From NCBI GenBank assembly GCA_013203785.1, contig JABMPJ010000047.1:2459-66458 (forward strand): a stretch of 64,000 nt of DNA. Reading direction: 5' to 3'. The position numbers and the translations under genes were made by a program. The notes beneath the pieces are model-generated. The model was not told the DNA's origin, did no database searches, and worked only from the letters and a program-made list of their open reading frames with translations. Source of the stretch: Lentisphaerota bacterium. GTDB lineage: Bacteria; Verrucomicrobiota; Kiritimatiellia; UBA8416; JABMPJ01. Below are positions 27,280-58,498 of this stretch, piece by piece; the first letter of the stretch is position 1, and every line of letters begins with the position of its first letter.

Positions 27280-27324
27280 GAATTGAGGTACCAATTGACG
27301 ATGGACCCTAAAGGAGTGATTACA

Positions 27325-33048: not shown

Positions 33049-33464
33049 CACATTCCCTCCGCGATCATGGTGTAAACGTCCACGGATTCACCGCTCAAGC
33101 GACCATTGGGCACAGGGAAGAAGACGCGCACGACGATCCGGGTGCAGGTGGGCACGGCGTTACTGACGGTCGTGGTACGCCGAAAAACTCCTGACTGGTC
33201 AATATTCCCAAACTCGTCGACCGCCGCCTCGTATTCGGACAGCAGCCCGAGGCTCTCGTAATCGAGCGTGCGGGCACGCTGAATGCGATTGCGGGCAATA
33301 CAGGTGGCCTTGTAGAGATCCGAAGCCACAGTGTGGGTCCGCATCGCCGAGATGTTGGCGGCAATGAACCCACCCGCGATCACGAAGAAAATGGCCGAGG
33401 CGATGACCACCTCCACCATCGTGAAACCCGCTTCGTTCCGTTTGCCTTTGCGGCGTCCTAACAT
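33048..33464 (-). CDS. Pseudopilin (prepilin-type N-terminal cleavage/methylation domain protein)
   Basis: MLGRRKGKRNEAGFTMVEVVIASAIFFVIAGGF is the canonical G|FTxxE motif. GGAGG RBS upstream of the ATG at 33464. Confidence 0.75.
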   Translation of the reverse strand: MLGRRKGKRNEAGFTMVEVVIASAIFFVIAGGFIAANISAMRTHTVASDLYKATCIARNRIQRARTLDYESLGLLSEYEAAVDEFGNIDQSGVFRRTTTVSNAVPTCTRIVVRVFFPVPNGRLSGESVDVYTMIAEGM

Positions 33465-33624: not shown

Positions 33625-34551
33625 TCAACCCGTCACAAAGCGCGTGTGATCCCAGTCATGCAGCAGCTGTGCCACATCTGGTCCCCTGGAACGGTGCTCT
33701 CCCCACGAGAGGTCTAGGAGCTTCAATGCCCCCTCGCCGCAGCCCACGACAACCTCCTGATCGATAATACGTAGCGCGCCAATCACGCAATCAGGATGCA
33801 CTCCCGCAACGACAGCCACGCGCCAGAGGGTGAGCCGCCGGCCTTCAAGATAGGTGAAGGCCCCTGGGTAAGGCGATGTCACGGCCCGCACCAGGTTGTA
33901 AAGTTCGCGGGCAGAACGGGACCAATCGATCAACCCGTCATCAGGTGAGCGCCTTCCAAATGTAGTCGCCCCGCTCTCATCCTGCGAACGCCGTGGGGCT
34001 CGGTCCTCTATAATCGCTGGCAGCCATGCCTCGAGCAGAACTTCTGCCGCAGTCTTCAGGCGGGTATAGAGTGAGACAATGTCATCCTGGGAGCTAATCG
34101 GCACGGGGATCTGACCGACAATGTCGCCGGCATCGGCTTGTTCAGACATGTGATGAAGTGTGACACCGGTCTGTGACTCGCCTCGCACCAAGACCCAGTT
34201 GGCGGGACAGCGTCCGCGGTAGGCTGGCAGCAATGAGGCATGCAGATTCAGGCCACCTCGCGGTGCCGTCTGTAGGAGTTCCCGCGATAGGAGTCGCCGA
34301 TAGAAGAATGAAAAGAGAATATCGGGACGGCAGGCGGCGACTCGATCCGGCCAAGGCGCCAGATTGGCATTGTGGGGCCGCTCACAGGGCACCCCCCGCT
34401 CCCGACACCAGTCGACCACCGAGGCGAACCAGCACTCCTCATTCGCGTCGTCCGGGTGCGAGAGGACTAGGGCAATCTCCACCCCGTGGCAGTGCAGTTG
34501 CTCCAAACCGATCACACCGATATCATGATAAGCAAAGACCACCGCCCTCAT
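33625..34551 (-). CDS. Formyltransferase (ArnA N-terminal formyltransferase-domain-like / Fmt family), stand-alone
   Basis: MRAVVFAYHDIGV...ILFSFFYRRLL...GGLNLHASLLPAYRGRCPANWVLVRGESQTGVTLHHM is the formyltransferase catalytic-core pattern. Length 308 aa. The ATG at 34549-34551 overlaps the upstream stop (ATGA). Confidence 0.75.
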   Translation of the reverse strand: MRAVVFAYHDIGVIGLEQLHCHGVEIALVLSHPDDANEECWFASVVDWCRERGVPCERPHNANLAPWPDRVAACRPDILFSFFYRRLLSRELLQTAPRGGLNLHASLLPAYRGRCPANWVLVRGESQTGVTLHHMSEQADAGDIVGQIPVPISSQDDIVSLYTRLKTAAEVLLEAWLPAIIEDRAPRRSQDESGATTFGRRSPDDGLIDWSRSARELYNLVRAVTSPYPGAFTYLEGRRLTLWRVAVVAGVHPDCVIGALRIIDQEVVVGCGEGALKLLDLSWGEHRSRGPDVAQLLHDWDHTRFVTG

Positions 34552-35459
34552 CAGACGTCCTCCTGCACCGATACCGCGCCAGCAAAGCCAGGAAGGCTCT
34601 GTCGGGCCAATCGGCCGCGCGGCATGACCCGGCCGCCGGGCAGGGCGGTCGCGGCTGTTGCCAGCGTCTGGGTGCTCAAACCCGCCTGCTCCAGCGCTGC
34701 AATGATGGCATCCAGCAGCCCCGGTTGCAGCAAGCCTTCGTAGTAGTCGTGAAGACAACAGAGCTGCCCGGAGGACGACCCGCAGACAACGGCAATCGCG
34801 GTCGCCGTCACGCGGTCCGACCGCCCGGTCATGGCTTCGGCGGAGGGCACCGTCACCGGCAGATGGGGCATCTCAAGCAAAGTTCCATCCCGCAGCAGCG
34901 TCTGAAAAGGAGCCCGGCCCCAGCAATCGGCCAAGTAAGGAACCCCGCGCGTCGCCAGCAGCTGTAGCACATCATCCCGGCTGCGCCAGCCGGGCGAGGC
35001 CCATGCATACTGGGTCTCTCCCGTCACGCGCGCCATCACGTCGTAGGCGCGCGCCACCTCCTGGGCCAATCGCTCCGGCTCAGAGTGCCACACCTCATCG
35101 ACCCACCACTCGTGATCGAATCCATGCACGCCCACCTCGTGGCCCAGTGCCAGCAACCGGGCAATGGTCGAACCCAGCAGTACGTCACTGTCCCCGCCCC
35201 CACTCATTCCCAGAAGCTCGCCCCACGCGCCCAGGCGCCCAAGGAGTCGCCACGCACCAATGTGCAACCATCGCTTCAGGTACCCCGGGCGAACGACCTT
35301 GCGCAGCCAGGGGCGCCCGCCGTTGAGTTGTGTCGTGAGGAAGAACGTCGCAAGCATATTGTGCGCCGCCAACCGCTCCGCCATCCGGGGCACCGCCCGG
35401 TGGAGGCCTATCCTGAAGTCCACATCGATGCGAAGTGCCGGTGCGTGACCTTCAGACAT
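34551..35459 (-). CDS. Polysaccharide-deacetylase-family protein (ArnD-like deformylase)
   Basis: NodB-type motifs (LATFFLTT..., HEVGVHGFDHEWW). About 302 aa from the ATG at 35457-35459, which overlaps the upstream stop (ATGA). The track ORF is longer (start at 35831), but its N-terminal extension would overlap the GT2 gene. Confidence 0.65.
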   Translation of the reverse strand: MSEGHAPALRIDVDFRIGLHRAVPRMAERLAAHNMLATFFLTTQLNGGRPWLRKVVRPGYLKRWLHIGAWRLLGRLGAWGELLGMSGGGDSDVLLGSTIARLLALGHEVGVHGFDHEWWVDEVWHSEPERLAQEVARAYDVMARVTGETQYAWASPGWRSRDDVLQLLATRGVPYLADCWGRAPFQTLLRDGTLLEMPHLPVTVPSAEAMTGRSDRVTATAIAVVCGSSSGQLCCLHDYYEGLLQPGLLDAIIAALEQAGLSTQTLATAATALPGGRVMPRGRLARQSLPGFAGAVSVQEDV

Positions 35460-36205
35460 CAAGACCGCCTCGCCCATGGCATACTGTAACGTAGCGTGGC
35501 AGCCAGGATGGTGAACGTCTCCCACCATCGAATCGTTTTGCCCTGCGCATAGCTGCGGAAGCGGTAAGAGACAGGCACCTCCCGCCAGCGCGGCCGAGTC
35601 GAACGCAGCACCTTCCATATCAACTCCGGGGTATAGGCAAAACGGCGCTCGTACAGTGTCAGGCCCCGTACGCACTCCATCCGAAATCCATACAGACCTG
35701 TGAGGAGATCCGCAGTGGTGTGGCGAGCCAAAAGATTGAACCACCCTGATAAAAGGCGATTTACCAGAAAGGTGGCGAGGTACTGGTCGGGGCGCGGTCG
35801 CCCAAAGCCGTAGCGAACGCCCATAACCCAATCGGCCTCACCGGCCAGGAGTGGCGCCAGCACATCCGGAATCTCGGCGGGTCGATACTCGCCATCGGCG
35901 TCGATGACGACCATGTGGCGCGCCTCAATGTTCCCAAACGCCCAGTTCAGCACCGCACCCTTGCCTTCGTTCACAGAGCGGTTCACCACAGAAACAGGGC
36001 CGCACGTCTCGACAGCCTGCTCAAGCTCAGCCGACCAGTCCGTGCTGGCGTCGTTGAGGACCCAGACATGCGAAGAGACATCAAGCCTTGCCAGAACCGC
36101 GACAACCTCCTGCACCACATCCACCAATGTGGCGCGCTCGTTGAAAACTGGAATCACCACCACCACGGCAGGGCACTCAGCGGCGCAGATGGGATTAGCA
36201 GCCAT
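35459..36205 (-). CDS. Family-2 glycosyltransferase (ArnC-like polyprenyl-phosphate aminoarabinose transferase)
   Basis: VVVIPVFNERATL...VLNDASTDWSAE...NEGKGAVLNWAF...VVIDADGEY is the GT-A/GT2 DxD signature. ATG at 36203-36205. Confidence 0.8.
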   Translation of the reverse strand: MAANPICAAECPAVVVVIPVFNERATLVDVVQEVVAVLARLDVSSHVWVLNDASTDWSAELEQAVETCGPVSVVNRSVNEGKGAVLNWAFGNIEARHMVVIDADGEYRPAEIPDVLAPLLAGEADWVMGVRYGFGRPRPDQYLATFLVNRLLSGWFNLLARHTTADLLTGLYGFRMECVRGLTLYERRFAYTPELIWKVLRSTRPRWREVPVSYRFRSYAQGKTIRWWETFTILAATLRYSMPWARRS

Positions 36206-37343
36206 AGTAGCCAATCACCCTCCCCAGGGCAGTCACCACCGACGCCACATCCGCCTCGCTCATCGCGTCGTGCAACGGCAGCGAGAGGATACGCCGAGCG
36301 ACCTGTGTCGCGACGGGACACGACTCCTCGTGCACGCCCAGCCTATCCTGGAGATAGGTCAGACAGTGCAGCGGCCGATAGTGGATCGCGACTTCAACAT
36401 GCTCAGCCGCCATGGCCTCAATCAGCACTCGGCGATCGATACGCAACCGCTCGGGCACGAGCAGTACGTTGAAGAGATGCCAGCCATGGCGCTGGCTCGA
36501 TGGCACAGGTGCAGGCAGTTCGACTGCCTCACTATTCTGTAGCGCCTCGCGGTAACGCTCTGCCAGCACACAGCGCCGGGCGTGGCGCTCCTCGACGGTG
36601 CGAAGTTGGTGGAGGCCCAGGGCCGCCTGTAGATCGCTCATATTGGCCTTGCAGCCCGGTCCCGTGACATCGCGCAACCAGCCCGATCCGGGCACGGCAG
36701 GCACCAGCCCGTGAAAGCGGCGACGGCGGACCCGCTCCGCCAATGCCGCGTCGTTGGTAGCCACCATGCCCCCCTCCCCCGTGGTGACGCTCTTGCAGGG
36801 GTGGAAACTGTAGGCATTGGCGACTCCATAGCCGCCCACATTCCGCCCCTCATAACCCGTCTCAATGGCGTGGGCGCAGTCGCTCAATAGGGGTAGACCA
36901 TGCCGATTAGCGATCCCGATCAGTGGCCCCATCTCACTAGGTCGCCCGGCGAAGTGGACAGGCAGCACGCAGCGCGTACGTGCCGTGATTGCCGCTTCGA
37001 GCAAGGCGGGGTCCAGGGTCCAGTTGCGCGCATCAATGTCGACCAAAACGGGCGTCGCCCCTCGATTAAGGATGGCATGGGCCGTGGCCACGAACGTCAG
37101 CGGGGTCGTGATGACCTCGTCCCCCTCTCCCACACCCAGCCCCGCCAGCGCCAACTCCAGAGCCTGAGTACCAGAGGTCACCGCCACTGCGTGCTCGACG
37201 CCCACATAGCGGGCGAACTGCGTCTCGAAAGCCGCCACCCGCGGTCCGGTCGCCAACCAACCCGAGCGCAAGACCGCCTCGACCTCGTGAATGGCCTCCT
37301 CAGAGATCGCCGACGCAAACACGGTCAGCTTGGTCTCCCGCAC
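36195..37343 (-). CDS. DegT/DnrJ/EryC1-family PLP aminotransferase (ArnB-like UDP-4-keto-pentose aminotransferase)
   Basis: ...ISEEAIHEVEAVLRSGWLATGPRVAAFETQFARYVGVEHAVAVTSGTQALELAL... Likely GTG start at 37341-37343, preceded by GAGGGTGGG. The track ORF starts at a TTG at 37442. Confidence 0.8.
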   Translation of the reverse strand: MRETKLTVFASAISEEAIHEVEAVLRSGWLATGPRVAAFETQFARYVGVEHAVAVTSGTQALELALAGLGVGEGDEVITTPLTFVATAHAILNRGATPVLVDIDARNWTLDPALLEAAITARTRCVLPVHFAGRPSEMGPLIGIANRHGLPLLSDCAHAIETGYEGRNVGGYGVANAYSFHPCKSVTTGEGGMVATNDAALAERVRRRRFHGLVPAVPGSGWLRDVTGPGCKANMSDLQAALGLHQLRTVEERHARRCVLAERYREALQNSEAVELPAPVPSSQRHGWHLFNVLLVPERLRIDRRVLIEAMAAEHVEVAIHYRPLHCLTYLQDRLGVHEESCPVATQVARRILSLPLHDAMSEADVASVVTALGRVIGYYGC

Positions 37344-37387
37344 GGGGGTCCCACCCTCGCGCGCGGGGCGCTCTGATACGACGTTGC

Positions 37388-39667
37388 TCACGGCTCTCCT
37401 CCGGCTTCCACCGTGAGCGGACGGAGTTCCTCTTTGTCCCAACGGTACGCCACATAGCCTGGGTGCGCCGCAAGAAACTCCCCATTGCGCGCGCCGAGGT
37501 CGCGCACGAAGAAGGGTCCGCGACGCAGGAAAGGATCATTCATAAAGAACCCGTCATTGAAAAGCAGCCCCTCCGTTTCAACGAACACGATCGCCCGGTC
37601 CAGCGACTGCTGCCGCACAGCCTCGTGTAGGCCAGCGGTGACATTGCCGTACTGCCGGGCTTCGTGCAACCGTTTAGGGAGATAGGCCGAGAGATTCCAC
37701 ACCACCATGCCGCTCACGACCAAGAGTGTGAGCACCGACCCCACAGAAAGACTCTCTCGCGAGCGGCGACCACAGCCAAGGGTCAGCCGGTCCAACCCCA
37801 CCCCGGACAGCACGGCCGCCAGGGGCACGGCCGCGAACCAGTAGCGTGCGCCATAGCCGATATGCTGGGTTGCCCAGTAACACATATGACCTGCAATCAA
37901 GGCCAGCATGAGCGCCATGAGAAAGAGGTAGCGCCCTCGGTGCCTGGCCAGGAGCAGCGGGACGGGAACCAGCATCAGTGATAGCTGCCAAGGCCAGCCC
38001 AGAAAGTAGTGCGACGTATGCCTGAGATAGAAACGAACGCTGCGCAATGCCTTGGCCGGTGTGTGCCCCCAGGTTCCCCAGGTCTTCAACCAGCCGTATC
38101 CACGGTCGGCTCCGAACCCCAATCGGTCGGATTGATCATAGAGCGAGTAGACATTGAGGGAGGTATGTTCGCCCCCATCGTGTTTGAAGAGCGAGAGCCA
38201 CAACGCCCCCACGATAATGAAGGGCAGTATCCCCGCCAAGCTGGCACTGCCCAGCCTCAACAGCCGTGCTGGCTGACGTTTCCGGAGAAGCACACCTGTA
38301 GCCGTGAGGGCAAATACGCCGCCCAAAAGAAGCGCCGTGAAGGGCCTTGTCAACATGGCCGCCCCTATCGCGGCCCCGCACAGAGCCGCCCGCCCCAGCC
38401 GATCCTCGCGCAGAGCGGAGCGGCCGGCCAGCAAGGCAAGCACGGCAAAGAGCGCCGCGGCCATGTGCGACATCAAGTTGCCGCCCATTAGGAGAAAGAA
38501 GGGCGAACTCACCAGTAGCGCCCACGATGCCCAAGCCGCCCGACGCCCCGCCCAGCCTGCGGCCAGGCGGTACACCGCCAGCGCCAGCAACCCGGCCAGC
38601 AAGGGATTCACCAGCCAGGGTACCCCCGCGCGCATGCCCGTGGCGAGCAGGAGAGGAAAGAGCGGCGGGTACTTGGAGAGCCACCGATTACCGAGCATCA
38701 AGATATGATCATGCTTAAAGAATTCGGGCAGCTCGGGTACGGTTGCCCAGAGATGCCCATGCGCGTAGATGCCAGCCTGGAACCAGTATGCCGTTTCGTC
38801 CGCCAAGTGGGGAACACGCTGCAGCCCGACCACCCCCACCCACGCCGTCGCCACCATCGGCACCCCCACCAACACTCCCCATCGCACGAACCGATGGAGG
38901 CGCAGGCGGCGTAACCTCGGACCAGGGCGGGCGCCAGCCAACTGGACGACCAGCCAGAGCAGAAGCACCAGGCATCCTCCGCGTAGGGCCAAGCGAGCCA
39001 CGTCTCCCACAAGGAGCCGGGCTTCCGTACCCACTGCGAGCGGTTGGAGCGGGACCACGTCTAATACCGCTCCGGGTCGACCATGCTCCAACCGGAAGAA
39101 GAAGGCGTCATTCAGGTCGGGCCGAATCACGAACGCCAGCCCGTTGTCCGCATCCGTCGCGCGCACGACCAGGCCGGCATCTGAAGGATGCGCCAGGTGA
39201 ACGCTGAGTTCGGCATCATGCCCGGCAGGGCGCGGCAGAAGCAGCACCGCCCGGTCGCCCTCGACTCCCGAGTGCCAGGCACCCCGACCGCGGTCGATTT
39301 TCCACTGCGGGGCCGGGTTGAGCCGAGGCCAGTCCCAGTCCGCATCCAAGAGGTGATAGCGGTGTATCGCGCCACCGCTGGCCACACGACCTCTCACCAA
39401 TAGATTGCGGAAGTACTGCCTATGGGCTACCCCGCCATAGGGATGGTAAACGTACAGCCCACAGCAATCGCCGATCAGATCGGGGGGAACGACCAGAGTG
39501 AGCAGGGACTGACCGTCGATCAGTGCCGTGACAGAGTCCCCCTCGTTGCGCAGTACCAGATCGTATCCTTCCGAGCCTTGCCCTGGCCAAAGATGAAGAA
39601 CCAACAGTAGGGCCACAAGGAGGACCTCCACCAGGCAGGCCATCCATAGCGTCCGGCGCTTATGCAT
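37388..39667 (-). CDS. GT-C membrane glycosyltransferase of the ArnT/PMT (GT83/GT39) family with ~300-aa N-terminal extension
   Basis: The core FFKHDHILMLGNRWLSKYPPLFPLLLATG...LMGGNLMSHMAAALFAVLALLAG is followed by many TM helices. The ATG at 39665-39667 is preceded by GGGGGGAG. The first ~300 residues (one TM helix plus a soluble domain) have no counterpart in canonical ArnT. Confidence 0.7.
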   Translation of the reverse strand: MHKRRTLWMACLVEVLLVALLLVLHLWPGQGSEGYDLVLRNEGDSVTALIDGQSLLTLVVPPDLIGDCCGLYVYHPYGGVAHRQYFRNLLVRGRVASGGAIHRYHLLDADWDWPRLNPAPQWKIDRGRGAWHSGVEGDRAVLLLPRPAGHDAELSVHLAHPSDAGLVVRATDADNGLAFVIRPDLNDAFFFRLEHGRPGAVLDVVPLQPLAVGTEARLLVGDVARLALRGGCLVLLLWLVVQLAGARPGPRLRRLRLHRFVRWGVLVGVPMVATAWVGVVGLQRVPHLADETAYWFQAGIYAHGHLWATVPELPEFFKHDHILMLGNRWLSKYPPLFPLLLATGMRAGVPWLVNPLLAGLLALAVYRLAAGWAGRRAAWASWALLVSSPFFLLMGGNLMSHMAAALFAVLALLAGRSALREDRLGRAALCGAAIGAAMLTRPFTALLLGGVFALTATGVLLRKRQPARLLRLGSASLAGILPFIIVGALWLSLFKHDGGEHTSLNVYSLYDQSDRLGFGADRGYGWLKTWGTWGHTPAKALRSVRFYLRHTSHYFLGWPWQLSLMLVPVPLLLARHRGRYLFLMALMLALIAGHMCYWATQHIGYGARYWFAAVPLAAVLSGVGLDRLTLGCGRRSRESLSVGSVLTLLVVSGMVVWNLSAYLPKRLHEARQYGNVTAGLHEAVRQQSLDRAIVFVETEGLLFNDGFFMNDPFLRRGPFFVRDLGARNGEFLAAHPGYVAYRWDKEELRPLTVEAGGEP

Positions 39668-40523
39668 TCTCCCCCCTCTCTCCCACCCGATAGAGCGCCA
39701 CACCCCGCCAAGCACGCCGCTGAAGCGAGGGGAAGAAGCGTATGAGTTGTCGATCGATTGGCCCGAAACAACGCAATGCAGCGCGATAGCCCCACGGCGA
39801 GCCCCATTCGAAGAGAAAGAAGAAGGCCGACGTGGAGAGTAGGTGCCACCCCTCACACTGCTCGAGCTGTAACCCGCCGCCCAGCGTCCCCAACTCTGCG
39901 AAATCAAGATAGTGTGTAAACGGCTCCCATTCGCGGGGACTCGAGCGATGGCGCAACCACTTCATGCATTTTCCCCCGCGCAATGACTCCACAAAGACGG
40001 CGCGGCCACCGGGGCGCAATATACGCGCACATTCGGTCGCAACCCGGCTCGGGGCCGTGTACATCAGCACATCTCGGGAAAATATGCAATCGGCCGAATC
40101 ATCCTCCAACTCCAGCGCGTCGGCTGACATGGTCCGAAAGGCAAGGCGGCCATTGATGGTGCGTTCCGCGCACCACTGAGCGGCCAACGCAACGCGTGCA
40201 GGCGAGACGTCCGTTGCCATGACGTGTGCCCCACGCTGGGCCAGGTGGAGCGCGCCCTGCCCCAGTCCACAGCCCAACACCACGACGCGGCGGCCCTCCA
40301 GCAGCCCCAGTAGCTTGATCGCCCGTGCGGTCTCGGGCGAGAGGAACGTATCGTAGGCCAGCTGCATGCGTCGGCCGTCATCCTGGCCCAGCGAACCGGT
40401 CCGCCGATTGAGTGGATCGCTGCATCCATGCCAGTAACGTGCTGCCGCGAGCGGGCCGCCCGTCGGCCCCGCTTCCGATATCGCAGGTTGACATCCCTGC
40501 CGCCCGTTGGTTTGCTCGTCCAT
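39660..40523 (-). CDS. Class I SAM-dependent methyltransferase
   Basis: Motif I VVVLGCGLGQGALHLAQRGAHVMATDVS and post-I/II motifs. ATG at 40521-40523. Eight-bp overlap with the ArnT-like start. Confidence 0.75.
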   Translation of the reverse strand: MDEQTNGRQGCQPAISEAGPTGGPLAAARYWHGCSDPLNRRTGSLGQDDGRRMQLAYDTFLSPETARAIKLLGLLEGRRVVVLGCGLGQGALHLAQRGAHVMATDVSPARVALAAQWCAERTINGRLAFRTMSADALELEDDSADCIFSRDVLMYTAPSRVATECARILRPGGRAVFVESLRGGKCMKWLRHRSSPREWEPFTHYLDFAELGTLGGGLQLEQCEGWHLLSTSAFFFLFEWGSPWGYRAALRCFGPIDRQLIRFFPSLQRRAWRGVALYRVGERGENA

Positions 40524-40566
40524 ATGAATCGCCTTCTGAGACCCAAGAAACAAGAAAGCACGTAAC

Positions 40567-42537
40567 ATGCCGGGGCCACAAGCGCAATACCGAGCGATTC
40601 ACATCATCGGCACCACCCTCCTGCCCGGCCTGCTGCTGGTGCTACTGGTCCTGGCCGCATTCGGCCCCGCCCTATGGCATGATTTTGCATGGGATGACCA
40701 CGGGCTGATCGTGCAGAACCCGGATATTCGAGTGACCTCCAGTTGGGCTCGCCCATTTCTGCGCAGCTTCTGGCAAACCGGAGCCAACGTGGAGGACGCG
40801 ACACGCAGCTTTTACCGCCCAATCGTAAGTCTTTCTTACCGAATTGATTACGCCATATGGAGCCTGAATCCCATGGGCTTTCATGCCACGAACATCCTCC
40901 TGCATGCGCTAGTTACGCTGCTGGTCTTCGGGCTGGGGCTGCGCCTCCTCGATAATCGGGCAGCAGCGCTTGTGGCCGCGGCCCTCTTCGCGATACACCC
41001 CTCGCACGTTGAAAATATCGTATGGATATCGGGTCGTACCGACATACTATGCAGCCTTTTTGCTTTGGCCGCACTGCTCCTGCTTCTGCCCACCCGGAAG
41101 GGGGTGCCGCCCTCAGTAGGACGCGCAGCGGCGGGCTGCGGCCTCTGTTTTCTCGCCCTGCTGGGCAAAGAGATGGCCCTCTCGCTCCCTATTCTTCTCG
41201 CGGCCTACATCGTCCTCCTGCCCCCCGAACATCGCCGCGCCTATCTGCTCTTGCTGGCCGGACTCTTCGCCACGACGGGCCTCTATATGCTCCTGCGCGT
41301 CTCGGTTCTGGGCCGCATCGTGGGACCAGCCCTGTTCGGGACGCCCGCAGAGAGGATTGCGGCCATTCCAGCCGTGTTCTCCCACTATATAGGAGTACTC
41401 GTTCATTGGATTCCCATTGACCCCCATCACGCGGACACCTTTGAGGCCCTGACGCGGCCACGCGCCATCGGAGCCGGCATCCTGGTTGCGGGTGGCTACG
41501 CGGCCCTCCTCACGCTCCTTTGGCGACGCCAGCAGAAGCGTGTTGTCTTCCTCCTGGCGTGGCCGCTCATCACACTGCTTCCCGTCATGAAGTTGGGTAC
41601 CTTCGGCGATGTGCTCTACGCGGATCGTTTTCTCTACCTCCCTTCGGTCGGCTTCCTGATGGGGGCGGTGCTGCTGTGGAACAAAACCGCGGTGAAACAG
41701 ATGCAGCACCGCACGGGCCGAAATCTGGGTGCCGTGCTGCTGCTGGCCTACGGAGGTGCCTCCATGGCCCTCTGCTCCATCCATACTCCCTACTGGAAAG
41801 ACGACGAAAGCCTCTTTGGTCACGCCGCGCTCACATCTCCATCCTCAGCCTATATCCAGTACAACTTGGGAAATAGTCTGAGCGAGGCAGGAAAAGACGC
41901 TACAGCCGTCCACGCCTACATGCGGGCGGTAGAGATTGAACCTCACTATGGGGCGGCATTTGCCAATATGGGGATCGCCCTCATGCATGGCGGGCGGGAC
42001 AAAGATGCCATAGCCTGTCTCCGCAAAGCCCTTTCACTGGGCGATAACAGCGTCGTCACCTATACGAGTCTCGGCACCGCCTACCGCGCCCTTGGAGACT
42101 TGGAGTCAGCAAGACAGGCCTATGAGGCCTCGCTCGACATCTCCGAAACCGCCGCCGCCCGCAGCAATCTAGGCGAGTGCTTGCTCGCTCAGCATCACCC
42201 CGCGCAGGCCGAAGCCCACTTCCGGCGAGCCTACCGGATCGAGCCTTCACCCCGCATCCTCTGTAACCTTGGCTCGGCCTTGCTTGAACAGGATCGTGCC
42301 ACGGAAGCCATGCCCTATCTTCGTGAAGCTGAGCGCACGCTCTCACGCACACATGGGGGCGATGCCTTCGCCGTGGCCTATAATCTGGCGTGGGCGCTCA
42401 AGGACTCCAAGGGTACCGACGCAGCGAAGCCCTATGCCGAACGAGCGAGAGCACTCCTCAGGCAGGGCCATGGACCGCCAGCGGCGGACGGTCAAACTCC
42501 TGATATTTTGGAGAGTATCCTTGGTGCGATGGACTGA
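40567..42537 (+). CDS. Multi-pass membrane protein with C-terminal TPR repeats (TMTC/PMT-like putative glycosyltransferase, DUF1736-like)
   Basis: N-terminal ~400 aa hold about 10 TM helices with the AWDDHGLIVQNPDIR...RSFYRPIVSLSYRIDYAIW block. C-terminal ~250 aa hold several TPR units. ATG at 40567. Confidence 0.6.
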   Translation: MPGPQAQYRAIHIIGTTLLPGLLLVLLVLAAFGPALWHDFAWDDHGLIVQNPDIRVTSSWARPFLRSFWQTGANVEDATRSFYRPIVSLSYRIDYAIWSLNPMGFHATNILLHALVTLLVFGLGLRLLDNRAAALVAAALFAIHPSHVENIVWISGRTDILCSLFALAALLLLLPTRKGVPPSVGRAAAGCGLCFLALLGKEMALSLPILLAAYIVLLPPEHRRAYLLLLAGLFATTGLYMLLRVSVLGRIVGPALFGTPAERIAAIPAVFSHYIGVLVHWIPIDPHHADTFEALTRPRAIGAGILVAGGYAALLTLLWRRQQKRVVFLLAWPLITLLPVMKLGTFGDVLYADRFLYLPSVGFLMGAVLLWNKTAVKQMQHRTGRNLGAVLLLAYGGASMALCSIHTPYWKDDESLFGHAALTSPSSAYIQYNLGNSLSEAGKDATAVHAYMRAVEIEPHYGAAFANMGIALMHGGRDKDAIACLRKALSLGDNSVVTYTSLGTAYRALGDLESARQAYEASLDISETAAARSNLGECLLAQHHPAQAEAHFRRAYRIEPSPRILCNLGSALLEQDRATEAMPYLREAERTLSRTHGGDAFAVAYNLAWALKDSKGTDAAKPYAERARALLRQGHGPPAADGQTPDILESILGAMD

Positions 42538-42595
42538 CTTTGCTATTGTCTCGCATGGAACTTGCTCTTACTATTGCCCGCAGTATAAAGCACCT

Positions 42596-43630
42596 ATGAA
42601 ATCACCTTTAGAGATTATTCGCACCCTCAAACGGGGACCTACGGACGTTGTGGGGCTCGACATCGGGAGTGCCTCTGTTCGAGCCGTTCGCATCCGCAAG
42701 AACAATGACACGTTGACCGTCACCGCTGTTGACATTCTGGAACGCCCCGTTCAGGCGGGCAATGAAGCGGAGGAGCACCCCCTCCCAACCCTCGATCTGC
42801 CGTCCCATGTCAAGGCGCGCTATGCCTCTCTCGCTGTCGACTCCAGCGAGGCCATCGTGAGACTGCTGACACTGCCGGGAAAGAGCGAAGCCGATCTGGA
42901 CACGCGCGTTATCGATAGCCTGGGGCTTGAGAATCCAGATGACTACCGCATTAGTTACAAGGTACTGGCCGACGGGGCAACCCGCTCCGAAACACGCGTC
43001 GTGGCCGTCGCCTATCCCGACACCTTGGCCACAGACTCCATCGCCATGCTCCCCACCACAGGAACGCCGGCACCCTACTCCCTTGAGGTAAGCGGCCTGG
43101 CCACAATGACCACTTTCATGAATGGACCGGTGACAGCGCGGGAGAGCGATACGCTCGGCCTCATCGATTTTGGTGAGACCTCCAGTCTTTTTGCCTTCTT
43201 CCACAAGGGCTCACCGGCCCTGATCCGCAAACTGGACCGCGGCACCAATGCCCTGCTCGACAAGGTCGAGGCCATGCTGGGCGTCGATCGCGAAACCGCC
43301 ATCGGCATTATTTCGGATGGCTCTTTCGATATCTCCCCAGCCGCGACGGAAGTCCTACAGCCGCTGGTTCGGCAGATCCTCGTCTCGCGCGATTTCGTGG
43401 AACGACGCGAAAGCTGCAAAGTCGATGCGGTCTATCTGGCAGGCGGACTGGCCGTCTCGCGCGATGCCCAGAATGAAATTGGCGGGGCCATGGGTATCCC
43501 CGTCGAATCATGGAACCCCTTTAGTGGTCTTAACATGGCCGCGGACGCCATGCCGGACAAATTTGCAGGCTTGGAGTGGCGCTTCGCCGCTGCCCTGGGT
43601 GCCTGCCTGGCCACCTTTGAGGAATCATGA
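42596..43630 (+). CDS. pilM: Type IV pilus assembly protein PilM (actin-like ATPase fold)
   Basis: MKSPLEIIRTLKRGPTDVVGLDIGSASVRAVRIRK... is the PilM N-terminus. About 344 aa. ATG at 42596. Confidence 0.8.
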   Translation: MKSPLEIIRTLKRGPTDVVGLDIGSASVRAVRIRKNNDTLTVTAVDILERPVQAGNEAEEHPLPTLDLPSHVKARYASLAVDSSEAIVRLLTLPGKSEADLDTRVIDSLGLENPDDYRISYKVLADGATRSETRVVAVAYPDTLATDSIAMLPTTGTPAPYSLEVSGLATMTTFMNGPVTARESDTLGLIDFGETSSLFAFFHKGSPALIRKLDRGTNALLDKVEAMLGVDRETAIGIISDGSFDISPAATEVLQPLVRQILVSRDFVERRESCKVDAVYLAGGLAVSRDAQNEIGGAMGIPVESWNPFSGLNMAADAMPDKFAGLEWRFAAALGACLATFEES

Positions 43631-44235
43631 ATCTTCGCGCCGACCTGATATTTGCCACGGAGCAACGCAGCGCCAGCCGGGTGAGCTTGCGATCCATCAC
43701 ACGTGTGGCCTCCATTGTCGGCCCCGTGGCGGGCCTGGGTCTCATTGCCTTCATCGCAATGAACGCCATCAACTTGAGCAACCGCGCCAAGGGCATTAAG
43801 CGGGACTGGCTGGATCTCGAGCCCCGCAAAGAACAGGCCCTCAAGGTGCTCGAGGCAGGCCGGGTCAATGACAGCATTCTCAAAGAGATCGAGACGTGGA
43901 AACACTCCAGCATCGACTGGGCCCCACAGCTGTTCGCTATTCAGAAAGGCATCAGCCCGAGCATCCAACTCAGCTCCATCCGGATCAGTCAGGTCTTAAA
44001 CCAGAACGATCGGGGCATCACAGCCCGTTCTTTTGGGCTCTCTCTATCCGGAACGGCAGTCGGCCGAGATGCCGAGGTCGCTGTAGAATCACTGCAGAAG
44101 CTGTTTCTTGAAGGCCCTGAATTCAAGACGCTGATCGCCAGTGCACAGATCCCGCGCTTCGGGGCCGACCCATCTGACAAAAATAATCGAATTTTTGAGC
44201 TGAATTGTGGATATAGCGCGAGCCTTTTCCAGTGA
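43627..44235 (+). CDS. pilN: PilN-like pilus assembly protein (single TM + coiled coil)
   Basis: ATGA overlap with pilM. One TM helix (ASIVGPVAGLGLIAFIAMNAI), then a periplasmic coiled-coil domain. Position is between pilM and pilO. Confidence 0.55.
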   Translation: MNLRADLIFATEQRSASRVSLRSITRVASIVGPVAGLGLIAFIAMNAINLSNRAKGIKRDWLDLEPRKEQALKVLEAGRVNDSILKEIETWKHSSIDWAPQLFAIQKGISPSIQLSSIRISQVLNQNDRGITARSFGLSLSGTAVGRDAEVAVESLQKLFLEGPEFKTLIASAQIPRFGADPSDKNNRIFELNCGYSASLFQ

Positions 44236-44894
44236 AACTACCCGAAGACAAACAACAGCGGCTGAAGATCTTCATCATGATCGGCCTGGCCGTTATCCTC
44301 GTGCTGCTGGGGATCGTGCAGGGCATCATTAATCCGCTGCGCAATTCGGCCAAGAACAAGCGGGCCACGATGGAGGAGAGCCGCAACGGCTTGGAGCGCG
44401 CGCGCAAAGAGATCCGGGCCGCCGCTCAAAGTCTGGATCGCCGTATGGAGACCCTGGTCACTATCCAGAGCATCTCCGACACCCACATTCTCCATCCCAT
44501 CCTCGGTAACTATCTACTCGAAGCCACCAGTATCATTGAAGCACACGCAGCGGCTTTGGCCGTCCCCATCGAGCCGGTTCGCGAAGTAGCCATCTCTGAT
44601 ATTCCTCGTGATGCCAAGAGCAAGGAGGATCGTCTGCTCAAGGCCTATACGGTCCGCGTTAACATGAACTCCTCTTATCACGATGCCTGCCGCCTGATCC
44701 GCGAGATTGAGCGCGGCAACCCCTATATCTGTGTCACCAGCCTGATGATCCGCCCGCGGCCCGGCATAGACGTCGAGACGCACAGCATCAGCATCGAGGT
44801 GCAGTGGCCGGTTTGGGCTGATCCGGAGTTCCCGTCCGAAATCAGGGAGCAGCTCAAAGAGCAAACATCCAAACAGGAGCGTAAAATCGAATGA
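44232..44894 (+). CDS. pilO: PilO-like pilus assembly protein
   Basis: GTG start overlapping the pilN stop (GTGA). N-terminal TM helix (IFIMIGLAVILVLLGIV), then a coiled coil. Position in the operon. Confidence 0.5.
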   Translation: MKLPEDKQQRLKIFIMIGLAVILVLLGIVQGIINPLRNSAKNKRATMEESRNGLERARKEIRAAAQSLDRRMETLVTIQSISDTHILHPILGNYLLEATSIIEAHAAALAVPIEPVREVAISDIPRDAKSKEDRLLKAYTVRVNMNSSYHDACRLIREIERGNPYICVTSLMIRPRPGIDVETHSISIEVQWPVWADPEFPSEIREQLKEQTSKQERKIE

Positions 44895-45373
44895 GAACAG
44901 CGACCACCGCAGTCCTCTTCCTGTTTCTTGCCGCAAACCTCTTCGGCGACGAACCGCTGTCGAACACGGCCAGCCCTGCGGAAGGGATAGGCGTGGATAC
45001 CAACGGCGTGGTCAACGAGAGTGGCATGGAGATTCTACGAGACCCCTTCTGGCCGGTGGGCTACGCACCACCACCGCCCGAGCCTGAAGTCACAGAGGAA
45101 CAGGCTGAGAAGATCGAAGTAGCACAGGCCACTCAAGCCAAGATCCAGTGGCCGGCCCTGCTGCTCAAGGGCATCACCCGAGCTGGCCCAGATCGCTACA
45201 TGGCCATCGTGGAGGGGGTCGGTCTGGTCGAAACAGGCCAAACCATCAGCCTACACAAGAGTGACATGCTTTACACATGGAAGATCGATGAAGTGAGTGC
45301 CAGAGGCGTCCGGTTTTCTCGCCTGGAAGCGCGCCCCTACCAGCCACTGACAGCAGGAGTTCGCACACAATAG
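44891..45373 (+). CDS. pilP: PilP-like pilus assembly lipoprotein/secretin-interacting protein
   Basis: ATGA overlap with pilO. Signal peptide, a Pro/Glu-rich linker, then a C-terminal beta-domain (YMAIVEGVGLVETGQTI...). Position is just upstream of pilQ. Confidence 0.5.
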   Translation: MRTATTAVLFLFLAANLFGDEPLSNTASPAEGIGVDTNGVVNESGMEILRDPFWPVGYAPPPPEPEVTEEQAEKIEVAQATQAKIQWPALLLKGITRAGPDRYMAIVEGVGLVETGQTISLHKSDMLYTWKIDEVSARGVRFSRLEARPYQPLTAGVRTQ

Positions 45374-45417: not shown

Positions 45418-46566
45418 ATGCGCAAACTGAAATTAGCAGCATCCGTGGCCCTGGCCCTCACCGCTCTAACCGCCCTGACCCTTTTCATCGGGTGCGAGGA
45501 CGAACCCGGAGTGACCGGTACGGATACCTACTTTGATGCCAACGCCTACCAGAGCGACCTGCGCTCAGATGGGGAACTGCCTCTGCTCCTGTCACCGATC
45601 CAAGAATCGGTCACCATCGTCGGTCAACGCATCGCTTTCAGAGCCAAAGGCGGTACCCGGCCGATCACATGGTCCGTTTCCAGTTCTGCCCGAGGCAGCA
45701 TCAATACCGTGGGCCTACGCACCGACTACGCCCTCTATGAAGTCAAGGCCGTCGCCGACAACAGCGTACAAGCCATCGACGCTGATGGCCGTGCCGCCGT
45801 CGCCGCCGTTCGGGCCGGCACTGATGCGCTGCGAATCACGCCCAGCTCGCTCACGCTCCTGCGTCCCGGTGCAGGCCCCGCGGGCGACTTCGTAGTTACG
45901 GGCGGGGTCCCGCCCTATAGCGAATGGATAGAGACCTTTCCCGAACTGGGAGTCGTCAGCCTTGGAGGAACCTACATCGTCATGACCGCCCTGGTAGAAG
46001 GCACCAACTTTGTCTCCATCACCGACGCCGCCGGCGACATCGCCACGGCCACCGTGAACCATGTTCTTGAGTACGACCCGCTCGCTATTATTCCGGAGAG
46101 CACCGCCCTAGCCACCGATGGCGATACAGCCAATTTCATCGCCTCCGGCGGACTGCCGCCCTATCAGTGGTCGCTGGTCTACAACAGTCAGGGGCAGATT
46201 GTTGGCTCAGACACCGGTACCGTTATGCTTTACCGACGCCTTGACGAAGGCGATCAGGTCATTATTCTGGAAGACGCCCTAGGGAGCTTCACGCAGGCAC
46301 AGGTGGCTCAGGCGGCTCCGACCCCACCGGTGATCCAGCCCAGCAACGTCACCCTCGCGACTAACGAGACCACCTTCGCCTTCGCTGTCACAGGGGGCAC
46401 ACCGCCCTTCAGCTGGCTGGTCTTGACCGGAACCGGCTCGCTGACGCCGAATACGGGCACGGCCGTCGTGTACACGCGAGGTGTGGGCAACCCGCCCAAC
46501 AACTACATTATCCGCGTCACGGACAGCGCGTCACAGAGCGCCCTGGCCACGATTACGCAAGAATAG
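45418..46566 (+). CDS. Lipoprotein with four putative Ig-like (He_PIG/cadherin-like) domains
   Basis: Lipobox LTLFIGC. Repeated ~90-aa units carry GGxPPY/F.W motifs (GGVPPYSEW, SGGLPPYQWS, TGGTPPFSWL, plus a first unit with GGTRPITWSV). Inserted between pilP and pilQ. Confidence 0.6.
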   Translation: MRKLKLAASVALALTALTALTLFIGCEDEPGVTGTDTYFDANAYQSDLRSDGELPLLLSPIQESVTIVGQRIAFRAKGGTRPITWSVSSSARGSINTVGLRTDYALYEVKAVADNSVQAIDADGRAAVAAVRAGTDALRITPSSLTLLRPGAGPAGDFVVTGGVPPYSEWIETFPELGVVSLGGTYIVMTALVEGTNFVSITDAAGDIATATVNHVLEYDPLAIIPESTALATDGDTANFIASGGLPPYQWSLVYNSQGQIVGSDTGTVMLYRRLDEGDQVIILEDALGSFTQAQVAQAAPTPPVIQPSNVTLATNETTFAFAVTGGTPPFSWLVLTGTGSLTPNTGTAVVYTRGVGNPPNNYIIRVTDSASQSALATITQE

Positions 46567-46628: not shown

Positions 46629-48581
46629 ATGAATCACAAACTGAGAAACATGATGCTGCCAGCCGCGGCGGGACTGCTCGTCGTTGGTGCCCTCTGGCTC
46701 AACGCCCAGGAGATGATAGACCCCGCATCCATGCCGCCGTCGGAGGATGTACGTGACAGCGCCGCCCCGATCGTCCCACCCATTCCGACCGCCCCAGACG
46801 GGTCCCCCATGCTGGCCCCGGACGGACGGCCCACCACCCCCGACGCCATGCGCGCACCCGCACTGGCCGCCCCGGCCGTCTCCATCGCGCCGGAGCCCAT
46901 CGCCGAGGCCTTTGACACCTCGGACGAGGCAAGCGGCTTCTTGACGCTCGACGAAAGCAGCGACAGCCCTCTCGACCTTCAAGAAGCGGACGCGGCCGCC
47001 GACAAAATCAGCATTACGCTCGATGATGTCGAAATCCTCGATGTCGTGCGTATGTTCACCCGTATTTCGGGGGCCAATATTATCGCGACCCCCTCCAACC
47101 TGAACGGGCGGGTCACGGTCAACCTGACCGATGTCGAATGGAAGCCCGCCCTGGAGTCCATACTCGATATGCACGGCTTGGCCCTCGACGAGAAACTGCC
47201 CGGATCAGGTGTCTACCGCATCGTTCCGCGCCCCGCTGGCTCGCCCGAGCCCATGAAGGTGGAAACCTTCTTTCTGAGCTATGCGGCCGTGGCCAACGTC
47301 TCCCCTGTGGTCACCTCCATGCTCGCTGCCGGAGGAACCGTCTCCGACTTCCCCTCCAAGAATGCCCTCGTCGTTCGTAGTACCGCCGCCAACCTGGGCG
47401 AGATCCAGCAGGTCATTACCGAGATCGATACGCCCCGCGATCAGGTTTTCATCGAAGCCAAGTTTATGGAACTCAACGACCAGGCCATCAAAGACCTCGG
47501 CATTAATTGGCAGGCCCTTTCTGGCTATAGCATCGGAGCCTCCAGCTTGCAGGTGGATCTCAGAAAATCCCGAGTCTGGGAGGACCAACGCTCCGATGCG
47601 CTGGCCCGCCGCGACCTTAGGGGGGCCACCGATACGCTCAATGAGCGCTATGACATCTACAACGACCAGTACGAAGAACAAACGCTTGAGTTCTTAGAGT
47701 CGCCACCCGACTCAGGAAATTTCATTTCACAGACCACGATTACCCCGACGCGTGAGACGGTCGACAGCATTGATGCTGGTGCGGACGTCCTCTCCGATGT
47801 CTCCAGGGCCTTTACGAAGTCCATCTCGGACGCCCGTACGGCCGTACTGAGTGCCGCAGATTTTCAAGTTGTCCTCAGCGCACTGAAACAGATGAGTGGT
47901 ATCAGCGTGGTCTCCAACCCGAAGATCATCGTGGCCAATGAAGAAATTGCCACGATCCATATTGGGCAGACGGAGCGGCCCTTCATCTCCAGTGTCACCC
48001 CCGGCCAGCAGGGCATCGCCCCCGTGGTGACCTACAACCCCGGTGAGCCGGTCGACTTGGGCGTAAAGCTCACCGTCACCCCGACCGTCAATACGTCCAG
48101 CAACATTACGGTCAAGATTGAGCCGGAGCTGACGCGTTTTCTGAGAGATGCTGAAGCGCCCAACGGCCAGACCTATCCGATCATTGCCACCAAGAAAATC
48201 ACGACCATCTTCTCGCTCGACAGCGGCAAGACCGTGGCCATCGGCGGACTGACCGAGACGACCGACCGTGAAGTCACCAGCAAAATCCCGCTGCTGGGCA
48301 GCATCCCGATACTGGGCAAGTACCTCTTTTCACACACACATCAGGAAAAATCCCAGGAGGAAACCATTATCTTTGTCTCGGTCGGTCTGGCTATGCCTGA
48401 CTCGATACTACGCGAGACCGGCCTGCCCGAAGACACCGAATTGACCCGCCGCCACCTCATCGCAGCGGAAGCCAAACGGCGCGCCTTTCTCGCAGAGATG
48501 GACCAAATTCAGGCGGCGGCAAAAGCCGACAGAGAACGGGACAGTAGCGAGGAAACATCCAAGCTCCTGAAGCGTCGCTAG
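46629..48581 (+). CDS. pilQ: Type IV pilus secretin PilQ (GspD/PilQ secretin family)
   Basis: Signal peptide, a Pro/Ala-rich linker and N-domains. C-terminal secretin signature ...GKTVAIGGLTETTDREVTSKIPLLGSIPILGKYLFSHTHQEKSQEETIIFVS. Confidence 0.85.
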   Translation: MNHKLRNMMLPAAAGLLVVGALWLNAQEMIDPASMPPSEDVRDSAAPIVPPIPTAPDGSPMLAPDGRPTTPDAMRAPALAAPAVSIAPEPIAEAFDTSDEASGFLTLDESSDSPLDLQEADAAADKISITLDDVEILDVVRMFTRISGANIIATPSNLNGRVTVNLTDVEWKPALESILDMHGLALDEKLPGSGVYRIVPRPAGSPEPMKVETFFLSYAAVANVSPVVTSMLAAGGTVSDFPSKNALVVRSTAANLGEIQQVITEIDTPRDQVFIEAKFMELNDQAIKDLGINWQALSGYSIGASSLQVDLRKSRVWEDQRSDALARRDLRGATDTLNERYDIYNDQYEEQTLEFLESPPDSGNFISQTTITPTRETVDSIDAGADVLSDVSRAFTKSISDARTAVLSAADFQVVLSALKQMSGISVVSNPKIIVANEEIATIHIGQTERPFISSVTPGQQGIAPVVTYNPGEPVDLGVKLTVTPTVNTSSNITVKIEPELTRFLRDAEAPNGQTYPIIATKKITTIFSLDSGKTVAIGGLTETTDREVTSKIPLLGSIPILGKYLFSHTHQEKSQEETIIFVSVGLAMPDSILRETGLPEDTELTRRHLIAAEAKRRAFLAEMDQIQAAAKADRERDSSEETSKLLKRR

Positions 48582-58455: not shown

Positions 58456-58498
58456 ATCCACCTCCCCCGAGAGCCGTTAGCCGTATCTGAAGAGATTT

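Follow-up and report, generated by a model that had tools for sequence, protein, structure and literature searches.

A gene predicted to encode a membrane glycosyltransferase of the GT-C fold fused to tetratricopeptide repeats (TPR) lies at 40567..42537 on the plus strand of a 64,000-nucleotide stretch of the Lentisphaerota bacterium contig JABMPJ010000047.1 (hereafter, the window). The open reading frame (ORF), with the same coordinates as in an original prediction made from the nucleotide sequence, encodes 656 residues. Its product is 100% identical to the deposited metagenome-assembled genome (MAG) protein P0001, annotated as "tetratricopeptide repeat protein [Lentisphaerae bacterium]". The gene and the parts of its product are the following.

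40567..42537, plus strand: GT-C/TPR glycosyltransferase gene (ORF; identity to P0001; AlphaFold2 pLDDT 94.7, pTM 0.93)
40567..41796, plus strand: membrane GT-C domain, residues 1-410, with 11 transmembrane (TM) helices (conservation in alignments A1, A2 and A3; top 26 Foldseek matches all GT-C)
41839..42462, plus strand: periplasmic TPR domain, residues ~425-632, about six repeats (Pfam TPR_1/2/8/12; Foldseek matches to OGT and consensus-TPR structures)
40693-40698, 40813-40821 and 41035-41043, plus strand: catalytic-face codons for D43-D44, Y83-R84-P85 and R157-x-D159, respectively
41167-41172, 41422-41430 and 41623-41637, plus strand: further motif codons for K201-E202, P286-H287-H288 (periplasmic loop EL4) and D353-R354-x-x-Y357, respectively

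The N-terminal 410 residues are strongly hydrophobic, and the C-terminal TPR array (residues ~425-632) is unambiguous in Pfam (TPR_1, 1e-23; TPR_12, 7.7e-23), confirming the repeats that had been proposed to follow the membrane domain. The full-length AlphaFold2 model has the pLDDT and pTM values given above, and the membrane domain modelled alone has a pLDDT of 91.7. About ten TM helices had been expected. The multi-TM character is borne out by the hydropathy and by both models, and the count, taken from the modelled helices and the positive-inside loops 177-186, 212-224 and 319-325, is 11. There are two long periplasmic loops, EL1 (residues 38-101) and EL4 (residues 249-297), the latter holding a hydrophobic, non-spanning juxtamembrane helix (residues 260-278). 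In the modelled topology, the protein is embedded in the inner membrane with its N-terminus in the cytoplasm, and both the catalytic face and the TPR domain at the C-terminus are in the periplasm. By analogy, the TPR domain is presumed to be the acceptor-protein recognition module.

Fold, family and conserved motifs

What kind of enzyme is the membrane domain? The Foldseek search with the full-length model was dominated by TPR proteins (OGT, consensus TPRs and APC/C), and it became informative after the membrane domain had been remodelled alone. The first 26 matches of this domain model in the PDB are all GT-C(A) lipid-phosphate-sugar transferases, and beyond them the probability falls below 0.2. 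They include STT3 (8age_A; E 2.9e-4, TMq 0.54), PglB, AglB, ArnT (5f15, 3.8e-3; also 5ezm), Pmt4, Pmt1/2, DPY19, EmbA/B and AftA/D. No PDB sequence was matched, either by phmmer of the domain or by hmmsearch with a 27-sequence family profile, and the Pfam and NCBIfam searches of the N-terminal domain alone gave nothing above noise. The DUF1736/PMT-like loop of the original prediction is therefore not recovered in the focal protein itself, which has no Pfam TMTC_DUF1736, PMT or PMT_2 match. The link is transitive, via relatives: among 27 of them, TMTC_DUF1736 is matched in four (best 7.8e-15), PMT in two and PMT_2 in two, and several are named "protein O-mannosyl-transferase" by JGI. An O-antigen polymerase, an alternative considered from the start, or ligase (Wzy/WaaL/PglL) was rejected, as the protein has no Pfam Wzy_C match and no Wzy/WaaL-type protein appears among its Foldseek matches.

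In a collection of 5.8 billion proteins, 427 homologs share sequence words with the membrane domain. An exhaustive profile search gave 146,091 representative clusters with E<=1e-3 and, at the stricter E<=1e-30, 70,319. The combination of a GT-C domain with TPR is thus commonplace. We aligned 94 full-length homologs (A1), 27 sequences (A2) and, further, the 16 members of a close subfamily. D43, D44, R84, P85, E202, R244, P339, L356, Y357 and P359 are invariant in A2 (27/27), and D44, P85 and Y357 are invariant over all 94 homologs of A1, in which D43 is conserved in at least 90%. The acidic pair of the first periplasmic loop, on which the original prediction staked its case, is accordingly present. 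Near-invariant residues are F40, Y83, H106, H144, P145, E149, K201 and S360, together with R354 in A2.

Eisenhaber and colleagues described seven motifs (Table 4) of TMTC1-4 and derived for them the same topology as the one read for the focal protein; they already noted prokaryotic homologs (PMC7801869). Five of these motifs (M1, M2, M3, M4 and M7) have counterparts in the focal protein. M1 (DD, EL1) corresponds to D43-D44. The core of M2 (SHKSYRP, EL1) is retained as T79-R-S-F-Y83-R84-P85, with YRP in 26-27 of the 27 sequences; its H/K positions are replaced by R80, which is invariant only within the subfamily. M3 (RxD, EL2) is R157-T-D159 (23/27), and M4 (KE(T/Q)xxT, EL3) is represented by K201 (25/27) and E202 (27/27), with M and S at its third and sixth positions. 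M7 (ERxxY, EL5) is conservatively kept as D353-R354-F-L-Y357 (E/D, 27/27; R, 24/27; Y, 27/27). M5 (DW, EL4) is absent: the D-[YW] of the DUF1736-positive relatives aligns with H287-H288, within a PHH sequence that is invariant across the 16-member subfamily. M6 (PxxP, TM9) is reduced to a single invariant proline, P339, and has no PxxP. In addition, the TPR region is conserved within the subfamily, with invariant S424, S427-A428-Y429, N433, P459 and others.

The motifs, the structural matches and the TPR array agree with the proposal that the protein mirrors the eukaryotic TMTC architecture, and we conclude from the alignments and the model that it is very probably an active GT-C/TPR glycosyltransferase of the TMTC-like family. 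It resembles TMTC1-4 (GT105, cadherin O-mannosyltransferases) in having 11 TM helices followed by TPR, a hydrophobic non-membrane helix in EL4, and the shared motifs DD and (S)xxxYRP in EL1, RxD in EL2, KE in EL3 and (E/D)RxxY in EL5. Unlike TMTC1-4, it has no DUF1736 match, an invariant HH in place of DW, and a single invariant proline in place of the TM9 PxxP. It is also bacterial and periplasmic, its acceptors would not be cadherins, and its donor is probably not dolichyl-phosphate mannose (Dol-P-Man).

Conserved gene neighbourhoods

Exact-protein look-ups supplied part of the genomic contexts, and searching species-representative genomes with the 16-sequence subfamily alignment supplied 67 loci; the loci were annotated by tblastn of the window proteins, a prepilin-motif scan and Pfam. 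The close subfamily (at least 35% identity) comprises 11 distinct lineages—the window, L001/L010, L003/L004/L009, L005/L006/L014, L007/L011, L008, L012/L077, L013, L015, L016 and L078—and spans PVC-group bacteria, Thermodesulfobacteriota, FCPU426, Acidobacteriota and unclassified MAGs. In eight of the 11 lineages (all but L008, L013 and L016), the enzyme gene has type IV pilus (T4P) genes no more than 10 kb away. Arn-like, GT2 or GTC839-family genes lie within the same distance in eight as well (all but L013, L016 and L078). The T4P association seen in the window is therefore real and conserved, and it extends to L078, in which the enzyme is 37-39% identical, PilM 45% and PilQ 61%, with the same GT-C/TPR-pilMNOP-lipoprotein-pilQ layout. 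The pilMNOPQ linkage is accordingly not restricted to a single clade of 56% identity.

On the plus strand, the genes downstream of the GT-C/TPR gene are the following.

42546..42574, plus strand: conserved promoter-like element TTGTCT-N17-TACTAT, ending 21 nt before the pilM ATG (comparative alignment)
42596..43630, plus strand: pilM (PilM_2, 6.9e-11; TIGR01175, 7.9e-18)
43627-44235, plus strand: pilN-like gene (position, overlapping stop/start; orthologs in L001, L003 and L078)
44232-44894, plus strand: pilO/GspM-like gene (weak T2SSM/GspM matches, overlapping stop/start; orthologs in L001, L003 and L078)
44891-45373, plus strand: gene in the pilP position, 160 residues (position, overlapping stop/start; orthologs in L001, L003 and L078)
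45418..46566, plus strand: lipoprotein with four Ig-like-motif repeats of ~82 residues (lipobox LFIG followed by C26; GGxPP[YF]xW at residues 162/244/326)
46629..48581, plus strand: pilQ secretin (Secretin, 4.6e-33; TIGR02515, 1.3e-52)
48589..50268, plus strand: HisKA-like protein of 559 residues (weak HisKA match, VirA/CckA-like partial matches; orthologs in L001 and L078)

This pilM-N-O-P-lipoprotein-Q-HisK-like operon directly follows the enzyme gene in the window, L001 and L078. The 559-residue protein keeps its position after pilQ in L001 and L078, and is possibly a degenerate sensor kinase associated with the pilus operon.

Is the GT-C/TPR gene the first gene of the pilMNOPQ transcription unit, as had been proposed? 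The same-strand adjacency holds, and the gap, given earlier as 59 bp, measures 58 nt (42538-42595). A consensus scan of 40200-42900 for σ70 promoters and terminators found neither a promoter nor a terminator-like hairpin in the gap, so that read-through is possible. The promoter-like element (hexamers TTGTCT, 42546-42551, and TACTAT, 42569-42574) scores 8/12 against the σ70 consensus, below the threshold of the scan, and was found only by comparative alignment. The gap hardly differs between the window, L001 and L003, and L003 has the same element even though its upstream gene encodes an unrelated GFO/IDH oxidoreductase. In L078, both hexamers are kept (TTGTCT-N17-TAGTAT) and the spacer has diverged; the element TTGTCT-N17-TA[CG]TAT is thus conserved in four lineages (the window, L001, L003 and L078). 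The retention of the hexamers with a diverged spacer is the pattern expected for a functional promoter. Moreover, six unrelated genes (5.8 kb) lie between the GT-C/TPR gene and pilM in L003/L009. Because of the element and this insertion, pilMNOPQ looks like a transcription unit of its own, which makes the proposed leading position doubtful: the GT-C/TPR gene is probably a conserved neighbour of pilMNOPQ and not an obligatory co-transcript. On the other side of the gene, the window, L001 and L003/L009 all keep the tight divergent pairing with an Arn-like operon, which suggests co-regulation on that side.

The Arn-like operon and the genes behind it, all on the minus strand, are the following.

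39660..40523, minus strand: S-adenosylmethionine (SAM) methyltransferase (Methyltransf_11, 1.7e-19; start from the length of the L001 ortholog)
37388..39667, minus strand: second large GT-C, "GTC839" family, ~759 residues, with PMT_2 signature (6.9e-06)
36195..37391, minus strand: ArnB/PseC-like sugar aminotransferase (DegT, 9.9e-118; NF008658 ArnB, 4.4e-96)
35459..36214, minus strand: GT2 of the polyprenyl-phosphate glycosyltransferase type, ArnC/AglJ/PpgS-like (Glycos_transf_2, 4.9e-18; AglJ, 4e-25; PpgS, 1e-14; ArnC, 4.5e-09)
34551..35477, minus strand: ArnD-like deformylase of the polysaccharide deacetylase family (Polysacc_deac_1; NF011923, 1.7e-29)
33625..34551, minus strand: ArnA-N-type formyltransferase without the decarboxylase domain (NF005414, 315.5 bits; ArnA, 9.9e-94 over the N-domain only)
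33048..33464, minus strand: small prepilin-type protein, 138 residues, GFTMVEVVIAS (motif scan; N_methyl, 3e-06; ortholog in L009)
30136..33051, minus strand: giant prepilin-type FG-GAP protein, 971-residue ORF, AFTLVELMIAS (FG-GAP_3, 7.8e-13; L004 ortholog with N_methyl)

The operon (33625-40523) is closely packed and diverges from the GT-C/TPR gene across a gap of ~43 nt. The longest methyltransferase ORF begins at 40568 and would run head to head into the start codon of the GT-C/TPR gene (40567); translation of the methyltransferase probably begins at M16 (40523), which leaves only the ~43 nt for two divergent promoters. GTC839 orthologs adjoin the GT-C/TPR gene in L005 (two copies), L012, L015 and L077. 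We rejected GTC839 as a straightforward ArnT ortholog, as it has no PDB sequence match. The cluster contains no ArnA-type decarboxylase—the only match in the window, weak and away from the cluster, was to a short-chain dehydrogenase/reductase (SDR) at 57.7-58.5 kb—and no recognisable ArnE/F; no flippase was identified. Because the ArnA decarboxylase domain is lacking, the sugar can be called "Ara4N-like" (Ara4N, 4-amino-4-deoxy-arabinose) only by analogy; the lack of the decarboxylase and the presence of an additional methyltransferase point to something other than plain L-Ara4N. The "mannosyl" label that came with the TMTC comparison does not fit this setting: the conserved donor-side neighbours are Arn-like, and no Dol-P-Man-type synthase was specifically identified.

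The two prepilin-type genes directly follow the Arn-like operon on the same strand, 7-10 kb upstream of the GT-C/TPR gene. They carry the only class-III signal motifs that the motif scan found in the window, and both are conserved in L009/L004. The 971-residue protein, with its FG-GAP beta-propeller, may be a pilin-fused, PilY1-like tip adhesin.

In other lineages, the enzyme gene is accompanied by minor-pilin operons, composed of N_methyl genes plus PilX_N/DUF7305. In L012/L077 such an operon directly abuts the enzyme gene (1-bp gap), in L015 it diverges from that gene, in L014 it lies upstream of it, and in L011 it occurs with PilD and PilS/PilR; minor pilins also lie near the enzyme genes of the window and L009. 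Between L014 (Kiritimatiellia) and L011 (Thermodesulfobacteriota), the minor pilins are orthologous across phyla (E 4e-31). Prepilin ORFs lie near six of ten subfamily loci, as compared to seven of 59 distant-family loci (Fisher p=0.002). Among the distant loci, six members (L038, L039, L046, L051, L069 and L072) directly adjoin mutually similar PilA-type genes. In L038 (Omnitrophota, 8898-19149), the order is pilin, pilin, GT-C/TPR, pilin, and then PilM and PilQ, which is an independent arrangement like that of tfpW, a pilin glycosyltransferase gene. The remaining distant loci have neither the pilus nor the Arn-like association. Within the subfamily, the L013 context (8150-11830) consists of a WecG/TagA glycosyltransferase and an exosortase (EpsH) followed by the GT-C/TPR gene, which hints that some members may serve PEP-CTERM/exosortase systems instead of pili. 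Nothing recognisable was found in the L016 neighbourhood.

Proposed function and its alternatives

What does the enzyme glycosylate? The closest bacterial precedent is TfpW, the group IV pilin D-arabinofuranosyltransferase of P. aeruginosa, a GT-C enzyme that glycosylates PilA (bioRxiv 10.1101/2020.04.19.049825). TfpW has 646 residues, 11 TM helices and a periplasmic TPR domain, and it needs the DDx motif of its periplasmic loop 1 to glycosylate pilin. Its best modelling template is ArnT. A dedicated gene cluster supplies its lipid-phosphate pentose donor, and tfpW itself is situated in the pilin locus (same source). By description, the focal protein has the same architecture (~650 residues, 11 TM helices, DD in loop 1 and a C-terminal periplasmic TPR domain). 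Its locus is comparable, with pilM 58 nt downstream, the two prepilin genes upstream and T4P genes in eight of 11 lineages. The YX6PFX7P sequence that precedes the TPR of TfpW is matched in spacing by Y409-x6-L416-F417-x7-P425, in which the first proline is a leucine; the subfamily does not vary at L416 and F417, and at least 90% of the family has P425. The two systems differ in the donor genes, which are DprE1/DprE2/PPPRS for D-arabinofuranose (D-Araf) in the case of TfpW and Arn-like amino-sugar genes at the focal locus; no DprE-type family was found in Pfam scans of 45 window ORFs, a non-exhaustive search. They also differ in the neighbours: the major pilin gene pilA adjoins tfpW, whereas pilM or a minor-pilin operon adjoins the focal gene, and a second large GT-C accompanies only the latter. 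Another candidate relative, the pilin glycosyltransferase Ogt of cyanobacteria, was rejected, being a cytoplasmic GT41 enzyme.

Since the characterised GT-C enzymes with a TPR domain (TMTC1-4, TMEM260 and TfpW) all glycosylate proteins, we propose that the focal protein is a TfpW-like O-glycosyltransferase acting on pilus proteins and supplied with its donor by the neighbouring Arn-like polyprenyl-phosphate amino-sugar pathway; we consider this proposal as a whole to be evenly balanced. Its parts differ in strength. The enzyme fairly probably uses the donor of the neighbouring pathway. The assignment of a pilin or another T4P protein as the acceptor, drawn from the conserved neighbourhood and the TfpW precedent, is tentative and reaches an even balance at best.

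The reaction would proceed in the following manner. First, by homology, the divergent Arn-like operon (ArnB-like, ArnA-N, GT2 and ArnD-like) would produce a polyprenyl-phosphate-linked 4-amino sugar in the cytoplasm, putatively an L-Ara4N-like one. Second, the lipid-linked sugar would be flipped to the periplasm, in line with the known logic of extracytoplasmic glycosylation by a GT2, a flippase and a GT-C (PMC11194591). There, K201, R354 and a metal site (E202, H287/H288) of the GT-C domain are predicted to hold the phosphate of the donor, and the motif conservation and GT-C structures suggest that D43/D44 in EL1 would effect the sugar transfer. The TPR domain would recruit the protein acceptor, most likely type IV pilins or minor pilins, or else another T4P component. 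Finally, the modified pilus would be assembled by the PilMNOPQ machinery encoded next door.

The role proposed for the TPR domain is in keeping with TMEM260 (GT117, an IPT-domain O-mannosyltransferase), in which TPR alone was experimentally shown to bind the acceptor peptide (bioRxiv 10.64898/2026.03.17.711096). Compared by description, TMEM260 shares with the focal protein an 11-TM GT-C core, a lumenal TPR domain and a catalytic Asp in the first loop, and differs in an extra Rossmann-like lumenal domain between the core and the TPR.

Several points weigh against this proposal. The link to the acceptor comes from the gene neighbourhood and is circumstantial: L008, L013 and L016 have no T4P genes nearby, L078 has no Arn-like genes nearby, and prepilin-type genes are numerous in PVC-group genomes, so part of the adjacency could be due to chance. 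On the donor side, the cluster has no UDP-glucuronic acid decarboxylase domain, so the sugar may differ from Ara4N, and with two GT-Cs in the cluster the assignment of donor and acceptor between them is ambiguous. As for the family, the isolated N-terminal domain gave no TMTC_DUF1736, PMT or PMT_2 match in Pfam even at E<=10, and the likeness to TfpW is one of architecture, as read from its published description. The most serious objection is that the acceptor might be a lipid or a glycan.

In that case, the enzyme would be an ArnT-like envelope modifier that transfers the amino sugar to lipid A, the lipopolysaccharide core or a glycan, with the TPR as a scaffold and the T4P adjacency incidental. 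This is unlikely in our estimate, and the locus does resemble arnBCADTEF: it has neighbouring homologs of ArnA-N, ArnB, the ArnC-type GT2 and ArnD, Arn-like genes adjoin in eight of 11 lineages, ArnT (GT83) is among the structural matches, and the PHH of EL4 resembles the His-containing metal site of ArnT, as discussed in PMC7801869. ArnT itself, in contrast, has no TPR and acts on lipid A; the focal protein lacks a PMT_2 match, and the likeness is at the level of the fold. Furthermore, the second GT-C, which carries the PMT_2 signature within the Arn-like operon, could fill the ArnT role, the T4P linkage is equally frequent (8/11) and includes the operon fusion with minor pilins in L012/L077, and the characterised enzymes of this architecture act on proteins, as described above.

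We judge it quite improbable that the enzyme is a broad-spectrum periplasmic protein O-glycosyltransferase for which T4P proteins are only some of the targets. The very large family, the varied contexts of its distant members and the existence of general O-glycosylation systems that include pilins (PglL/TfpO) are consistent with such a breadth, whereas the close subfamily is specifically and repeatedly linked to T4P genes, and the conservation of its TPR region suggests a conserved partner.

The original prediction coupled the enzyme, as a TMTC-type O-mannosyltransferase, to the repeat lipoprotein at 45418-46566, in the way that TMTC acts on the extracellular cadherin (EC) domains. The lipobox and the four Ig-like-motif repeats of this lipoprotein stand, and its assignment as cadherin-like or He_PIG does not, since no He_PIG, cadherin or other Pfam match was obtained at E<=0.01. 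Enzyme, lipoprotein and pilMNOPQ do occur together in four lineages (the window, L001, L003/L009 and L078), down to 37-39% identity. The lipoprotein is exposed to the periplasm or at the outer membrane, contains 19% Ser+Thr and has the ~82-residue GGxPP[YF]xW repeats, and TMTC and TMEM260 act on Ig-like/IPT folds. These four lineages, however, are those that keep pilMNOPQ nearby. No homolog was found within 10 kb of the enzyme gene in the other seven subfamily lineages (tblastn, E<=1e-5), five of which carry pilin genes instead. The co-occurrence may be mere retained synteny, as panC is retained too. In addition, the repeat number varies (orthologs of 218 residues in L001, 391 in L003 and 227 in L078), no Pfam Ig match exists either, and the donor-side neighbours are Arn-like and not mannose-specific. 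The lipoprotein is a conceivable acceptor, though a distinctly improbable one. Least probable by far is a non-catalytic T4P assembly factor with a TPR like that of the secretin pilotins PilF/PilW/Tgl and a membrane domain as a mere anchor: the gene adjoins pilMNOPQ and the TPR region has weak NCBIfam matches (PilW, 6.3e-13; Tgl, 6.3e-10), but their scores are far under the cut-offs (48.8 bits vs 154 and 38.8 vs 225, respectively) and typical of generic TPR cross-matches, PilF/PilW/Tgl are outer-membrane lipoproteins whereas the focal TPR is carried by an 11-TM inner-membrane domain without a lipobox, and the invariant or near-invariant catalytic and donor-binding residues argue for an active enzyme.

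Returning to the TfpW-like pilus-protein glycosyltransferase, we also consider a wider proposal, which we hold to be doubtful: that a conserved cross-phylum module—GT-C/TPR, the second large GT-C, a polyprenyl-phosphate sugar synthase with Arn-like tailoring, and minor pilins or pilMNOPQ—redirects Arn chemistry of the lipid A type to place a cationic 4-amino sugar on T4P proteins. If it were true, the invariant His-His in place of the TMTC Asp-Trp might mark a change of donor, pili would be seen to carry a chemically new, cationic amino-sugar modification and a new class of pilin glycosylation, and the module would give the first functional lead on the very large bacterial TMTC-like family, which is uncharacterised. 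Pilin glycosylation influences pilus assembly, adhesion and phage resistance.

Pilin glycosylation by a GT-C/TPR enzyme is already established by TfpW, which is the only characterised bacterial example of this architecture that we found. In the literature, we found no described subfamily that combines linkage to T4P genes with linkage to a second GT-C and to an Arn-like amino-sugar pathway, and no described amino-sugar modification of pilins by a GT-C/TPR enzyme. The bacterial TMTC-like GT-C/TPR proteins (~146,000 representative clusters) are almost always annotated merely as "TPR protein", and a subfamily wired to T4P genes and an Arn-like donor pathway provides a concrete functional hypothesis for part of the family. 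For the annotation of the locus, the acceptor question shifts from the Ig-like lipoprotein to the pilins, and the membership in the pilM operon is corrected.

Other features of the window

Just beyond the pilin genes, a 582-residue TPR protein with an N-terminal UPF0489-like region is encoded at 27283-29031 (plus strand), adjoining an Rce1-like CAAX protease (26383-27279). A second glycan group occupies 57499-62311. It comprises an SDR of the 4,6-dehydratase type (57499-58461, minus strand), an RmlA-like nucleotidyltransferase (58683-59621), an epimerase (59670-60629) and a Wzy_C-family protein (60794-62311), a candidate for either a WaaL ligase or a PglL-type O-oligosaccharyltransferase. The region 2016-16620 encodes large predicted glycoside hydrolases, two of them GH106-like (rhamnosidase-type) and three with DUF4838 and GH2 sugar-binding domains, and an AraC regulator (18170-19069) lies near this run. 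Such a gene set is typical of polysaccharide-degrading PVC bacteria.

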